A stretch of DNA of 64,000 bases from Candidatus Falkowbacteria bacterium (GTDB lineage: Bacteria; Patescibacteriota; Patescibacteriia; UBA11705). Below the pieces are notes generated by a model that saw nothing but the letters and a program-made list of their open reading frames with translations, made no database searches and was not told the DNA's origin. The position numbers were made by a program, and so were the translations under genes. Where the stretch lies: the NCBI GenBank assembly GCA_003518055.1, contig DOZJ01000002.1:170137-234136 (forward strand), given 5' to 3'. Positions 9,378-54,435 of the stretch are shown here, one piece after another. Position 1 is the stretch's first letter; every line of letters starts with the position of its first letter.

Positions 9378-9430
9378 ATGTAATTTTTTATGGCATTATT
9401 TATAATTCTCAAAATACAATCACAGTGATT

Positions 9431-9883
9431 ATGAAAAAAATGCTTATAATGCTAATTATAATCGTGGGAATCTACGGTCTGTACCGATTGGCGAATCAAG
9501 ACGCTCCGGTTCAGGTGAATGTAGACGCTCCGGTTCAGACTCCGCCAAAAGATGAATCCACCAGTAAATCCGTAATATTGTCCGAGGAAATAAAGAGAAG
9601 GCTATATGTGGCAGATATTGTTGCCGATGGAGTCATGATTCCGGACGTTTTTACCCTAAAAGTCGGCCAGCCGGTTCGTCTTGAGATCAATCCCAAGGTG
9701 GATGTGTCCGGCTGCATGAATACGATTCTAATTTCTGAATTATTTGATCCTTTCCCCGATGACGCGCCGTTAGTGGAAAAGGACAAACAGATCGTGATGG
9801 AATTTACGCCGAAAAAGATTGGAACTTATTATCTCACATGTGTGATGGGCGTGCCGTGGGGGACAATAGAGGTTAAAGGATAA
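9431..9883 (+). CDS. secreted/membrane-anchored single-domain Cys/Met cupredoxin-like protein, paralogous to the C-terminal domains of the 4062..5831 protein
   Basis: N-terminal TM/signal segment; motifs VSGCMNTILISELF ... YYLTCVMGVPWGTIEV parallel FSCASALVVP...FSCSMGMYRGVIKV; the track ORF starts at GTG 9425, ATG at 9431 preferred. Confidence 0.45.
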   Translation: MKKMLIMLIIIVGIYGLYRLANQDAPVQVNVDAPVQTPPKDESTSKSVILSEEIKRRLYVADIVADGVMIPDVFTLKVGQPVRLEINPKVDVSGCMNTILISELFDPFPDDAPLVEKDKQIVMEFTPKKIGTYYLTCVMGVPWGTIEVKG

Positions 9884-9885
9884 AG

Positions 9886-9990
9886 CAAGAAAGCGAGAAC
9901 AGCGAGAAAAGTAAGACAAAGGATAACCAGAGTATTTGTTTACTTATCTTGCTTGTCTTGCTTATTTCACTTATAACTTATTAAAAGCGA
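9886..9990. repeat. REPIN-like structured intergenic repeat (copy A). It is an imperfect inverted doublet of aagcaaga(c)aagc(a/g)aga... units.
   Basis: reverse complement of 9942-9990 is near-identical to 54054-54100; the 16-mer aagcgagaacagcgag (9896-9911) matches the complement at 54158-54173. Confidence 0.6.
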
Positions 9991-10059: not shown

Positions 10060-10323
10060 ATGGATCGCCTGTCATTGAAAAAGTACGGCTGGAAATGCGT
10101 GCTCGGGGCGGAGGTCGCTTATGTCCTGTGTTTGGCCGGAGCTTTTTTGCCGGTGCGTTCGGCCGAGGCGGTGGAGCTGCATCATCGATTGTTTGAAATT
10201 TTTCCGGGGTTTACGTGGATCAATGCCTCAAGTGTAATTTTCGGTCTAGTGTACATGTTTGTTTTCGCTTGGATTTTTGCTTGGTATTACGTCTGGATGC
10301 ATAATACCAGCATGGTCAAATAA
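10060..10323 (+). CDS. small hydrophobic membrane protein
   Basis: 87-aa ORF with ATG start and two predicted TM helices. Confidence 0.4.
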   Translation: MDRLSLKKYGWKCVLGAEVAYVLCLAGAFLPVRSAEAVELHHRLFEIFPGFTWINASSVIFGLVYMFVFAWIFAWYYVWMHNTSMVK

Positions 10324-29766: not shown

Positions 29767-29958
29767 ACAATTATCAATGGATAAAATTAGTAAATCTTGG
29801 GAAAATAACTATACACTAGGTCCAAAGTAAATTAAAAAATTATCCCGACGGATTTTCTGATCAGCGTTAAAATTTTACCCCTTGATCGTTGTTCAAGATT
29901 GAATTATCATCAAGCGTTGGTTACATTTTACGGCGGTTGAAAATCGGTCTCAAATGTA

Positions 29959-30602
29959 TGACAACAGCCACCAAGGAAAAGGAAGCTGTCAGTGCGACAA
30001 TTAAAAAATTCAAAACTCCATTTCGCCAACCCGGCGGAACGTATTTTTATTCAACGGCCGTATGCGGCAAAAAGAATATTTTTGTTTGTGAGGCGTATAT
30101 GGATTTATTAGTTAATGCGTTCAAGTTGGCCGAAGTTCAGCATGATGTGAAAAGCTTGGCGTACGTCATCATGCCGAATCATTTTTACTGGGTTTTTCGT
30201 CTGAGCGAGAATCAGGACAACCCGGGCGCGGTTTATGGCACGGTCAAAAAAGAAGTCACGCTCGAAATTTTAAAACTGCTCAGCGCCGAAGCCAAAAACG
30301 AATCAGACCGCAAGGAGATGCTGGAAATTTTCAAAAGCAATGACGCGGTCAAGCGCTCTGAACCAAAACATATTTTATGGGATTTCAAGCAGGCGGCCAA
30401 GGTTCTGGATGACGGCCGAAAATTTGTGGTTTGGGAGAAAAAAAGTAAAGTTTTTCCCATCAACGATGAAAAATCTTTGATTCGCAACCTTCGGTTTGTG
30501 GCCGATGCGCCTGTTCGTGATCGTTGGCATCTGGTCGAACGTAATTTGGATTATCCGTATTTATATGTGGCGGAAGAATTCCAATCAAAAATAATGGCCT
30601 AG
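29959..30602 (+). CDS. IS200/IS605 TnpA-like / REP-associated tyrosine transposase (RAYT)-like Y1 HuH-family protein with a degenerate HuH motif (NHFY instead of HxH)
   Basis: R.P..GG.YF.T motif (FRQPGGTYFYSTAV); AYVIMPNHFYWVF in the HuH position; C-terminal RFVADAPVRDRWHLVERNLDYPYLYV resembles the RAYT C-terminus. The track ORF starts at TTG 29889; the first ATG is at 29959. Confidence 0.5.
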
Positions 30603-44389: not shown

Positions 44390-44466
44390 GGGTCCTTAGC
44401 TCAGTCGGTTAGAGCGCCAGCCTTTTAAGCTGGGCGTCCTGGGTTCGATTCCCAGAGGACCCACCA
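44390..44466 (+). tRNA. tRNA-Lys (anticodon UUU)
   Basis: cloverleaf folded by hand: acceptor gggtcct/aggaccc, anticodon loop cuUUUaa, T-arm ctggg-ttcgatt-cccag, CCA encoded. Confidence 0.8.
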
Positions 44467-44501
44467 AAAAATAGCGATCAGTTCGTTATTTTTTGTTTAC
44501 C

Positions 44502-44672
44502 GGGTCCTCAGCCACACACAAGTGTGTGTGGCGTTGGGAATCGAAGGCCGGAGCGATGCGCGACGAATACTGGTGAGGAGCGCCGCGAGGCCGGGCCCGG
44601 AGCGACGAGCCGGGAGGCGAGGAGACGGAGGGGATTCCCAGAGCCTGCCTACCGGCAGGCAGGGACCCACCA
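44502..44672 (+). other. tRNA-Lys-derived pseudo-tRNA / structured element carrying a ~130-nt GC-rich insert; it ends with the same 40-nt tail as the true tRNA
   Basis: starts gggtcctcagcc and ends ggggattcccagag...gggacccacca; ACCCACCAAAAAATAGCGATCAGTTCGTTATTTTTTGTT occurs at 44458-44497 and 44664-44703. Confidence 0.45.
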
Positions 44673-44854
44673 AAAAATAGCGATCAGTTCGTTATTTTTT
44701 GTTTTCCTTGTTTGATCAAGTGCTTTCCTTGGTTCAATAAGTAGTCAGAAATAATTTATAAAAAATACCCGACGGGTATTTTTTATTTTTTGCAATTATT
44801 GCTAATCGGTCGACCAGTTTTTTTTGACCAAGACGCTATTTGGATTGTGGCCGG

Positions 44855-53007: not shown

Positions 53008-53097
53008 AGATATTATTCTTACATCATGGAGAGGTGGCCGAGTGGCTGAAGGCACCACACTGCTAACGTGGAGGGGTGTAAAAACCCTCGCGAGTTC
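53008..53097 (+). tRNA. tRNA-Ser (anticodon GCU)
   Basis: acceptor ggagagg/cctctcc, anticodon loop cuGCUaa, long variable arm, CCA encoded. Confidence 0.75.
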
Positions 53098-53169
53098 GAA
53101 TCTCGCCCTCTCCGCCATGAACCACTCACTACGTTCGGGTTCATGGCACGCCAGTAGTGAGCCAATTCA

Positions 53170-53240
53170 CTTTGCTCGCTTATCTCGCTTTCCCTGTCCG
53201 CCGGAGCCTCGGCGCAGGCGGATTGCTTACAACTTACTTT
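53170..53240. repeat. partial copy of the REPIN-like repeat family (ctcgcttatct.gcttt...gcttacaac.tacttta) between the two tRNA-Ser genes
   Basis: matches 54145-54190 over about 40 nt with a few substitutions; additional hairpins at 53100-53165. Confidence 0.5.
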
Positions 53241-53242
53241 AA

Positions 53243-53333
<91 letters not shown>

Positions 53334-53468
53334 CCTACGCCAAGGCTTCGGCTGGCAAGCCAATTGAGGCAGTTAAGTTGAGTTCGTTCGTACGGGAAGT
53401 TAAAACCATTAGCCCAAATCAGAATCATTACAAGTTAGCTAGTTTAAAAAACAAATAAAAATAAACAT

Positions 53469-54053: not shown

Positions 54054-54180
54054 TCGCTTTTAATAAGCTATAAGTGAAATAAGCAAGACAAGCAAGATAA
54101 GTAAATCAGCACTCAGATTGTCTTTTGGCTTATGCTCTACTCGCTTATCTTGCTTTACTCGCTGTTCTCGCTTACAACGT
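54054..54180. repeat. REPIN-like structured repeat (copy B), inverted relative to copy A at 9886-9990
   Basis: 54054-54100 equals the reverse complement of 9942-9990 with one mismatch; internal arms gcaagataag/cgcttatcttgc; shared block ctcgctgttctcgctt. Confidence 0.6.
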
Positions 54181-54187
54181 ACTTTAT

Positions 54188-54276
54188 GTGCCCGTAGCTC
54201 CCGCCTTCGCTCTTACTTCGTAGAGCTTCGGCGGGCACCGCAGCTGGATAGTCAATCCCAGCTTCGCTCGGGCACA
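54188..54276 (+). other. tRNA-like pseudo-element. It shares the first 13 nt (gtgcccgtagctc) and the acceptor-complementary 3-prime end (cgggcaca) with the downstream tRNA, and has an internal hairpin insertion.
   Basis: 17-nt direct repeat ttatgtgcccgtagctc at 54184-54200 and 54309-54325; nested hairpins cccgcc...ggcggg / gctcttac-ttc-gtagagc. Confidence 0.45.
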
Positions 54277-54312: not shown

Positions 54313-54389
54313 TGTGCCCGTAGCTCAGCTGGATAGAGCGCAAGCTTGCGGAGCTTGAGGTCGCAGGTTCGAACCCTACCGGGCACACC
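54313..54389 (+). tRNA. tRNA-Arg (anticodon GCG as read; Arg identity tentative)
   Basis: acceptor gtgcccg/cgggcac, D-arm gctc-agctggata-gagc, anticodon stem caagc/gcttg with loop uuGCGga, T-loop ttcgaac, CCA encoded. Confidence 0.6.
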
Positions 54390-54435
54390 AGTTTATAGTT
54401 AGCGGAATTTATCTGGATATTTTGGGGACACTCTT

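Follow-up and report, generated by a model that had tools for sequence, protein, structure and literature searches.

The stretch of DNA considered here, which in its full length of 64,000 nucleotides is referred to as the window, comes from contig DOZJ01000002.1 of a Candidatus Falkowbacteria bacterium. It carries three related inverted repeats, described below as copies A, B, and C, and these belong to a palindromic, non-autonomous family of short repeats, approximately 70 to 110 nt in length, which is widespread in the Patescibacteria, i.e., the candidate phyla radiation (CPR). In Rfam 15 no element of this family reaches a gathering score (only tRNAs pass, with the elements giving chance-level matches to miRNA precursors), nor did our literature searches, whether by concept or by sequence string, find a paper on the family. 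The new side of the finding is this wider CPR family.

The preferred reading, and one which we would call probable if not comfortably so, is of a palindromic element resembling repetitive extragenic palindromes (REPs) or miniature inverted-repeat transposable elements (MITEs), that is, one that would spread by copy-and-paste and be co-transcribed, as a hairpin, at the boundaries of genes. CPR bacteria represent a large, poorly understood share of bacteria, possessing tiny, dense genomes, and little is known of their gene expression. If selfish, the family marks a still-unknown mobilization system that is common to the whole radiation. If instead functional, it supplies a handle on mRNA processing, on mRNA stability, or on translation in the absence of Shine-Dalgarno sequences.

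Copies in the window and anatomy of the family

That the window holds a repeat family represented in three regions had been proposed in an initial annotation, and this family is real. Copy A (9884 to 9990) is a full element on the minus strand, its homology to copy C being in reverse-complement orientation. It begins, as had also been pointed out, directly after a stop codon, i.e., the TAA at 9881 to 9883 of an open reading frame (ORF; 9425 to 9883) whose product is a cupredoxin-like protein. Its purine arm (9884 to 9915; units AGCAAG, AGCGAG, AGCGAG, and AGTAAG) is followed by an apical region (9916 to 9938), then by a pyrimidine arm (9939 to 9971; units TTTACT, CTTGCT, CTTGCT, and TTCACT), and lastly by a flank which is shared with copy C (9972 to 9990). 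Copy C (54054 to 54186, plus strand), likewise full, consists of that shared flank, here 5' and including a small GCTT/AAGC stem (54054 to 54072), a purine arm (54073 to 54105; units AGTGAA, AGCAAG, AGCAAG, and AGTAAA), an apical region (54106 to 54139), a pyrimidine arm of four CTYGCT units (54140 to 54172), and a 3' flank, TACAACGTACTTTA (54174 to 54186). Copy B (53153 to 53242, plus strand), which had been described as a partial third copy between two tRNA-Ser genes, is indeed a degenerate, one-armed remnant. It retains solely the 3' arm, with pyrimidine-arm units TTCACT-ttg-CTCGCT-tat-CTCGCT (53166 to 53189), is interrupted by an unrelated 26-nt GC hairpin (53197 to 53222), and closes with a 3' flank, TTGCTTACAACTTACTTTAA (53223 to 53242), which is common to copy C and which ends at tRNA-Ser(UGA). 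The flank sequence TTGCTTACAACTTACTTTA is common to B and C, and in C is found just 5' of the 5' end of a tRNA-like structure.

The near identity of copy C to the reverse complement of the copy A region, as initially claimed, is borne out by a repeat search. Positions 9912 to 9990 are 87% complementary to 54054 to 54132 (79 nt), and positions 9891 to 9919 are 90% complementary to 54145 to 54173 (29 nt), with the match involving copy B extending over 24 nt at 88%. Upon alignment of C with the reverse complement of A, the shared core, TCGCTTTTAATAAG[T/C]TATAAGTGAAATAAGCAAGACAAGCAAGATAAGTAAA, differs at one of 52 positions. The 3' arm of C is two 9-nt units longer than that of A, and the number of units thus is variable. 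A 16-mer that had been reported as shared, AAGCGAGAACAGCGAG, occurs exactly in A (9891 to 9906, plus strand) and in C (54158 to 54173, minus strand), and with two mismatches in B (53175 to 53190, minus strand); allowing up to three mismatches there are five matches to it versus 0.36 expected. The unit motif AGCRAGNNNAGCRAG has seven matches versus 0.03 expected, every one of them within A, B, or C. Long hairpins are obtained upon folding both A and C, whichever strand is read (-25 to -46 kcal/mol, z -3.3 to -5.3). The window locus is identical across assemblies from several groundwater samples.

Across the family the element is an inverted doublet, the order of its parts being purine arm, variable apical region, and complementary pyrimidine arm. 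The 5' arm contains two to six tandem 9-nt units of the form AG[C/T][A/G]A[A/G]+NNN, that is, an AGYRAR core plus a three-nucleotide spacer, with medians of 82 nt for element length and four for units per arm. AGCAAG (82 instances), AGCGAG (80), AGTAAA (75), and AGTGAA (32) are the commonest cores, with 16 remaining. Within the unit, position 3 is coupled to position 6, as C..G in 162 units and T..A in 107, with 16 mixed (269 coupled versus 16), and position 4 is free to vary. Spacer triplets are instead specific to genomes (TTA/TTC, ACA/ATA, ACC, TAC, etc.), and in 37 of 39 elements those of one arm mirror those of the other, such that palindromic symmetry is kept while sequence drifts. Polarity is strict, with 41 purine-first clusters versus no pyrimidine-first clusters in 310 kb, ten non-seed copies included. 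Family hairpins are strong (-20 to -52 kcal/mol), and in the Saccharibacteria subfamily the ends are defined, AGCTGGTTAAG...CTTAAYCAGCT, with arms inverted as are the terminal inverted repeats of MITEs.

As an aside, the AGY|RAR pattern resembles Ser-Lys/Glu codons with synonymous third positions. Coding by way of read-through, or as a linker, was considered and rejected, as the upstream stop and downstream ATG share a phase in just seven of 18 cases, with a start codon lacking.

Distribution, gene context, and signs of duplication

A total of 185,579 species genomes were scanned using the doublet pattern AAGCRAGNNNAGYRARN{20,50}YTYRCTNNNCTYGCTT, for which approximately two matches are expected by chance (our own estimate, assuming uniform base composition). 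The scan returned 45 loci, with 33 of these, from 18 genomes, possessing arrays of 9-nt units in both arms. Arrays are lacking from the other 12, which belong to unrelated phyla and consist of plain hairpins, perfect and GC-rich. Array-bearing genomes are almost all Patescibacteria, i.e., Saccharibacteria (six genomes), Uhrbacteria, Buchananbacteria, Portnoybacteria, Falkowbacteria, Terrybacteria, and Nomurabacteria, along with unclassified Parcubacteria/Patescibacteria, one metagenome-assembled genome (MAG) labeled simply 'bacterium', and one labeled 'Gammaproteobacteria'. In a genome collection of this kind Patescibacteria contribute just a few percent of all bases, and the enrichment of the element among them therefore is very large. 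The source species itself yielded no match, and so probably is absent from that collection. As to copies per genome, one Saccharibacteria MAG has four loci and each of four others has three, with other CPR genomes showing two to four strict-pattern matches each plus extra copies nearby; ten more non-seed copies were found within the 8-kb loci. The AGYRAR-unit hairpin could be used as a lineage marker.

The closest matches to the window's own, ACA-type subfamily, loop sequence included, are three elements (L145, L147, and L155) of the MAG labeled as an uncultured Gammaproteobacteria (binchicken_co334_146, CAYPKD01; GC 32 to 35%). A tblastx comparison of these loci with the window and its relatives found no shared genes. 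This MAG may be mislabeled taxonomically, or else the element may have passed between lineages.

A covariance model of 98 positions, R1, was built from six copies, all of them from other genomes. It matches copy A at 9881 to 9981 (46.9 bits, E 3.5e-8) and copy C at 54079 to 54175 (52.1 bits, E 2.2e-9), in both cases over model positions 1 to 98 of 98. Copies A and C thereby display everything by which the family is defined, that is, a purine arm of at least two AGYRAR+3 units, an apical region, a complementary arm, and a full-length model match. Copy B, at 14.5 bits (E = 1), fits this definition in part, with its one arm. R1 has no match beyond A, B, and C in the window or in the 19 kb past its ends (L184, L185), nor does it find an element in approximately 90 kb of DNA of Falkowbacteria relatives. 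Among viral contigs, two doublet patterns gave zero matches, and there is thus no sign of a phage origin. Over metagenomes, a single-arm, three-unit pattern gave at least 120 matches, consisting of chance matches and tandem repeats, with none from the source sample among the matches listed.

Gene context was assessed using heuristic ORF calls. Of 35 classified elements, 23 lie between same-strand genes (11 +|+, 11 -|-, and copy A, provided that the 87-aa ORF at 10060 is taken into account). Twelve others, including L134 and L176 with their minus-strand ORF on the upstream side, are overlapped by a called ORF, and these overlaps appear to be artifacts, with N termini wrongly extended to TTG starts that lie within the pyrimidine arm. 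A practical effect is that the element lengthens ORF calls. Elements typically begin 0 to 15 nt past a stop codon, or just past a -10 box, in the short spacers of compact operons, and in approximately 35 of 44 cases the distance from element 3' end to the next start codon is 0 to 17 nt. This proximity holds as well where the upstream stop is 40 to 500 nt away, i.e., in approximately ten cases versus two of the opposite asymmetry. One copy is directly 5' of rpmJ, inside of a ribosomal-protein operon. In L172 and L152 a TATAAT box is found 6 nt 5' of the element, and in L164 a perfect TTGACA-17-TATAAT promoter 20 nt 5' of it. With copy C and with L163 the downstream 'gene' is instead a tRNA or tRNA-like structure, 14 to 16 nt away. 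Among 22 gene calls in 20 kb of the window genome (L001, i.e., 43469 to 63987), a Shine-Dalgarno sequence is missing from most, and in several a TATAAT-like box is found 6 to 20 nt 5' of the ATG, a pattern that suggests very short leaders in the source genome.

Duplication within genomes is seen as shared loops. Copies A and C are 87 to 90% identical with apical and flank sequences included, and three copies in L141 have the same loop, in both orientations, which in both instances points to recent duplication. In some genomes the arms are alike but the loops are not. Presence, in turn, is patchy. A cluster syntenic with that of the window, i.e., tRNA-Ser, tRNA-Ser, small ORF, and tRNA-Arg, is present in three relatives, one of them a sister Falkowbacteria species (L129; 79% aa identity on a neighboring ORF) and two more distant (L130, L131), and no AGYRAR unit is found in any of these clusters. 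The element, present in the window lineage but absent at this site from the sister, is therefore not a conserved tRNA-operon leader, an alternative that the initial annotation had raised. In an orthologous spacer of two Saccharibacteria, one has an AGYRAR element (L172, 3640 to 3720) and the other a different hairpin (L174, 5308 to 5392) whose 3' arm is (GTCGTAA)x4. Such hairpins made of short tandem units may be a general feature of CPR intergenic spacers.

Explanations for the element

The preferred, copy-and-paste reading may be spelled out as follows. Copies within a genome would arise by copy-and-paste, as A and C share loop and flank in addition to arms. Given spacers leaving just 0 to 17 nt to the next gene, elements would be co-transcribed with the genes that flank them, and in RNA would be present as a predicted 25- to 40-bp hairpin at a cistron boundary. 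Most likely the effect of such a hairpin would be that of REP or Correia elements, i.e., upon mRNA processing or stability, as a barrier to exonucleases or as an RNase III site. The element would not serve as a transcription terminator, with efficient termination excluded by the lack of a U-tract together with negative consensus scans.

Several points weigh against this copy-and-paste reading. Since relatives cannot be aligned in their intergenic DNA, neither a target-site duplication nor a clean empty site is definable, and direct repeats flanking the elements are not seen with any consistency; as for copy A, its neighboring 152-aa protein is without a close orthologue on a usable contig. No element is linked to a candidate transposase. 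For the source genome, copy number (two full copies plus one fragment) is known for 83 kb only. The window copies are placed atypically for the family, copy A being 87 nt from the next ATG and copy C preceding a tRNA-like structure. Sense and antisense strands are equal in predicted stability (17 versus 15, Wilcoxon p = 0.99, a difference of approximately zero), such that nothing points positively to selection upon the sense-strand RNA in particular. The AGYRAR core is kept across very deep CPR lineages, which is odd for a purely selfish repeat and fits with a conserved host factor. Lastly, greA is directly preceded by an element in one Saccharibacteria and one Portnoybacteria genome (L164, 3418 to 3510, and L173, 1837 to 1919). 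At both loci an ORF of approximately 670 aa is found upstream, with that of L164 resembling, by eye, a penicillin-binding protein.

The main rival is that these are host-used cis-regulatory elements, with the 9-nt array recognized by a conserved Patescibacteria RNA- or DNA-binding factor and organizing downstream gene expression. The routes envisaged are translation initiation or standby, processing at cistron boundaries, and 5'-end protection, in genomes largely without Shine-Dalgarno sequences and with very short leaders. This explanation is favored by the deep conservation of the AGYRAR core, i.e., across Saccharibacteria and many Parcubacteria lineages even as spacer triplets drift, by the tight coupling of unit positions 3 and 6, and by start-proximal placement which persists given large upstream gaps. 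The scarcity of Shine-Dalgarno sequences in the window genome, its -10 boxes near ATGs, and occupancy of the site 5' of greA in two phylum-level lineages fit with it too. The distribution is patchy, however, with the sister species, and also the window's own greA (L185, 14520 to 14661), having no element. Copies within a genome, furthermore, share loops and flanks, indicating duplication; an unrelated hairpin takes the element's place at an orthologous site; single units are not enriched outside of arrays; and the window copies are not themselves close to start codons. Patchy presence, shared loops, and that unrelated hairpin are what lead us to favor the mobile reading, and host use in this sense is taken to be a real but lesser possibility. 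Its broader form, a Patescibacteria-wide element for which a conserved factor reads the AGYRAR array in two flavors (AGCRAG and AGTRAA), is held to be somewhat less likely still. Were it true, then hairpins set approximately 10 nt 5' of genes would process, protect, or prime translation of cistrons lacking Shine-Dalgarno sequences, a new mode of gene-boundary organization in CPR bacteria. Much further from favor, indeed very unlikely, is that copy A is an intrinsic terminator, as had been suggested initially, or that B and C are leader or promoter elements of tRNA operons. Copy A does begin at a stop codon, T-runs follow some members of the family, and B and C share a flank, GCTTACAAC-TACTTTA, right before a tRNA or tRNA-like 5' end. 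Nevertheless, neither A nor C is followed by a U-tract, and consensus scans call neither terminator nor promoter. Elsewhere the closeness of the next start codon, including within the ribosomal-protein operon, leaves no room for a promoter, only one of 33 elements adjoins a tRNA, and the syntenic tRNA clusters of relatives have no element.

A classical REPIN-RAYT system, i.e., REP doublets forming hairpins (REPINs) that are mobilized in trans by a REP-associated tyrosine transposase (RAYT), also is weighed here, as the initial annotation had called the elements REPIN-like and had pointed to a RAYT-like, HUH-type protein encoded in the window. In form that description stands, with A and C each consisting of two REP-like sequences inverted into one hairpin, and with several copies per genome, but in terms of mechanism it does not. 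The ORF is there, on the plus strand, with coordinates corrected to 29958 to 30602 (214 aa). It matches NCBIfam REP_Tyr_transpos (NF047646) at E = 6e-20 over positions 5 to 145 of 146, and matches TnpArep (PDB 4ER8) at E = 0.027 as a single sequence and at 1e-6 as a family profile. Two of its homologues bear the JGI name 'REP element-mobilizing transposase RayT', and the protein is a true, if divergent, RAYT homologue. Its gene is single-copy with conserved synteny, as with domesticated RAYTs, the orthologue in four relatives being found beside genes for a lamin-tail-domain protein and type-IV-secretion-like genes. The NCBIfam score of 71.6 bits, on the other hand, is under the curated cutoff of 80, and there is no Pfam match, Y1_Tnp included. 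The HUH motif reads H-F-Y/L/M in 15 of 15 aligned family members, that is, the second His is missing. In the window protein Phe is present at the position aligned to the catalytic Tyr of E. coli TnpArep (VDYIYINPV), a position that is not conserved in the family, although the alignment is weak in this C-terminal region (3.1 bits). No copy flanks the ORF or is found within approximately 20 kb of it, no elements are present at orthologue loci in the four relatives (nor in the 41 kb examined of the sister species), and tblastn finds no RAYT-like ORF in the 33 element-bearing loci of other genomes. Because catalytic residues are missing and linkage is lacking, the protein probably is not the mobilizer, and we judge its gene as probably not part of the element system. 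REPIN-RAYT mobilization thus is considered to be improbable. A second, distant RAYT-like paralogue (25% identity, tblastn E 5e-10) is found in the sister Falkowbacteria two genes downstream of the orthologue (L179, 12661 to 13212).

Comparison with known systems helps to place the element. As with REPs, bacterial interspersed mosaic elements (BIMEs), and REPINs of Proteobacteria, these are short, extragenic, imperfect palindromes, present as several copies per genome and in both orientations, and located in intercistronic or 3' operon spacers, where here too they would be co-transcribed. As with REPINs particularly, the inverted doublet forms a hairpin of approximately 100 nt, and a RAYT homologue is present in the genome. 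A REP is a single sequence of 20 to 35 nt with a GTAG head, however, whereas CPR arms consist of tandem 9-nt units in variable number. REPs are also species-specific, whereas the CPR unit core is kept across phylum-level lineages, and CPR elements, unlike REPs, are preferentially just 5' of start codons. In contrast with REPIN-RAYT systems, no CPR copies flank the RAYT-like gene, and its product lacks the HUH and Tyr catalytic residues.

Also comparable are Correia (nemis) repeats of Neisseria, and the MITE-like ERIC, BOX, RUP, and SMAG, which similarly are approximately 100 nt in length with long terminal inverted repeats, occupy intergenic spacers, are co-transcribed with their neighbors, form long hairpins, and are patchy between relatives. 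Correia hairpins in Neisseria are RNase III substrates, altering mRNA stability. Differences are that no TA or other target-site duplication is seen for the CPR element, that its arms are 9-nt tandem units, and that its family is found in many CPR phyla instead of in a single genus. We know of no parent insertion sequence with ends which match those of the CPR element. RNase III hairpins of the phage T7 early region likewise are long, imperfect, found between co-directional cistrons, and without U-tracts. Those hairpins are unique, non-repeated sequences, however.

Two further likenesses were considered and set aside. Integron attC sites are imperfect hairpins that follow each ORF of a co-directional array, and the Saccharibacteria units GTTAAGC / GCTTAAC match the attC consensus, GTTRRRY / RYYYAAC. 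In attC sites, however, RYYYAAC comes first and GTTRRRY last, an order that is reversed in CPR elements on both strands, and the motif is missing from the window subfamily. With DNA uptake signals (uptake signal sequences, USS, and DNA uptake sequences, DUS) there is in common a 9-mer core, often in inverted pairs after genes, but these signals are dispersed as single copies. Single CPR units instead are not enriched outside of arrays (AAGYRAR, 73 versus 77 +/- 8 expected; AAGCGAG, 2 versus 7.8), which speaks against a dispersed motif of the USS/DUS or Chi type.

tRNA genes and tRNA-like structures of the window

Two of the copies had been described as abutting tRNA genes. This holds for copy B, which is flanked by the plus-strand genes for tRNA-Ser(GCU) (53028 to 53117) and tRNA-Ser(UGA) (53243 to 53332), its own flank ending 1 to 2 nt before the latter. 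For copy C the relationship is indirect, that is, C lies 14 nt 5' of a tRNA-Arg-like pseudo-structure (54188 to 54276, plus strand) and approximately 140 nt from the real tRNA-Arg(GCG) gene (54314 to 54390, plus strand). With just one of 33 elements in other genomes having a tRNA neighbor, adjacency to tRNA genes is incidental rather than a trait of the family.

In the pseudo-tRNA-Arg (-49.7 kcal/mol, z -6.0), the opening 13 nt of the tRNA (GTGCCCGTAGCTC) lead into an inserted hairpin of 40 nt; CAGCTGGATAG comes next, then another hairpin, and finally CGGGCACA, the 3' acceptor strand. A shell of the same design, in the same place but differing in hairpin sequence, is found in a distant relative (L130, 3343 to 3435; 43% aa identity for the neighboring gene). 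No such shell is present in the sister species, where a duplicate of the 3' end of tRNA-Arg is found downstream instead (L129, 10755 to 10769).

What looks like the same phenomenon, and which may be the more unusual feature of the window, is a tRNA-Lys-like shell (44502 to 44672) that is located directly 3' of tRNA-Lys. Here the acceptor ends of tRNA-Lys, 5' and 3', enclose a hairpin of 9 bp, approximately 100 nt of GC-rich insert closed by a T-arm-like stem, and a further hairpin. Next, the 45 nt comprising the tRNA 3' end and its trailer are repeated at 98% identity (direct repeat 44457 to 44501 / 44663 to 44707). The fold is cloverleaf-like (-90.7 kcal/mol, z -5.6), and the shell has no Rfam match. 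Similar disrupted tRNA copies are present in relatives (L129, 9275 to 9412 and 9497 to 9899; L130, 2540 to 2700), in one of which a conserved, structured segment (cgggaaacggNagtttcccg...tgggaaaccRtgggtttccca) precedes a duplicate tRNA-Ser 3' end. L129 also has a pseudo tRNA-Ser(UGA), with inserts in its D-loop and T-loop, adjoining an 80-aa ORF for a GIY-YIG endonuclease. Such arrangements suggest that small mobile insertions may target tRNA genes in the Falkowbacteria lineage of the window.

The tRNA 3' trailers at 53115 to 53147 and at 53330 to 53365 are hairpins which take in the encoded CCA end (ccatgaacc...gggttcatgg cacgcc and ccagcc...ggctgg caagcc, respectively). An analogous sequence, ccatgaagt...acttcatgg caggcc, follows each tRNA-Ser copy in L130 (2346 to 2385 and repeats).

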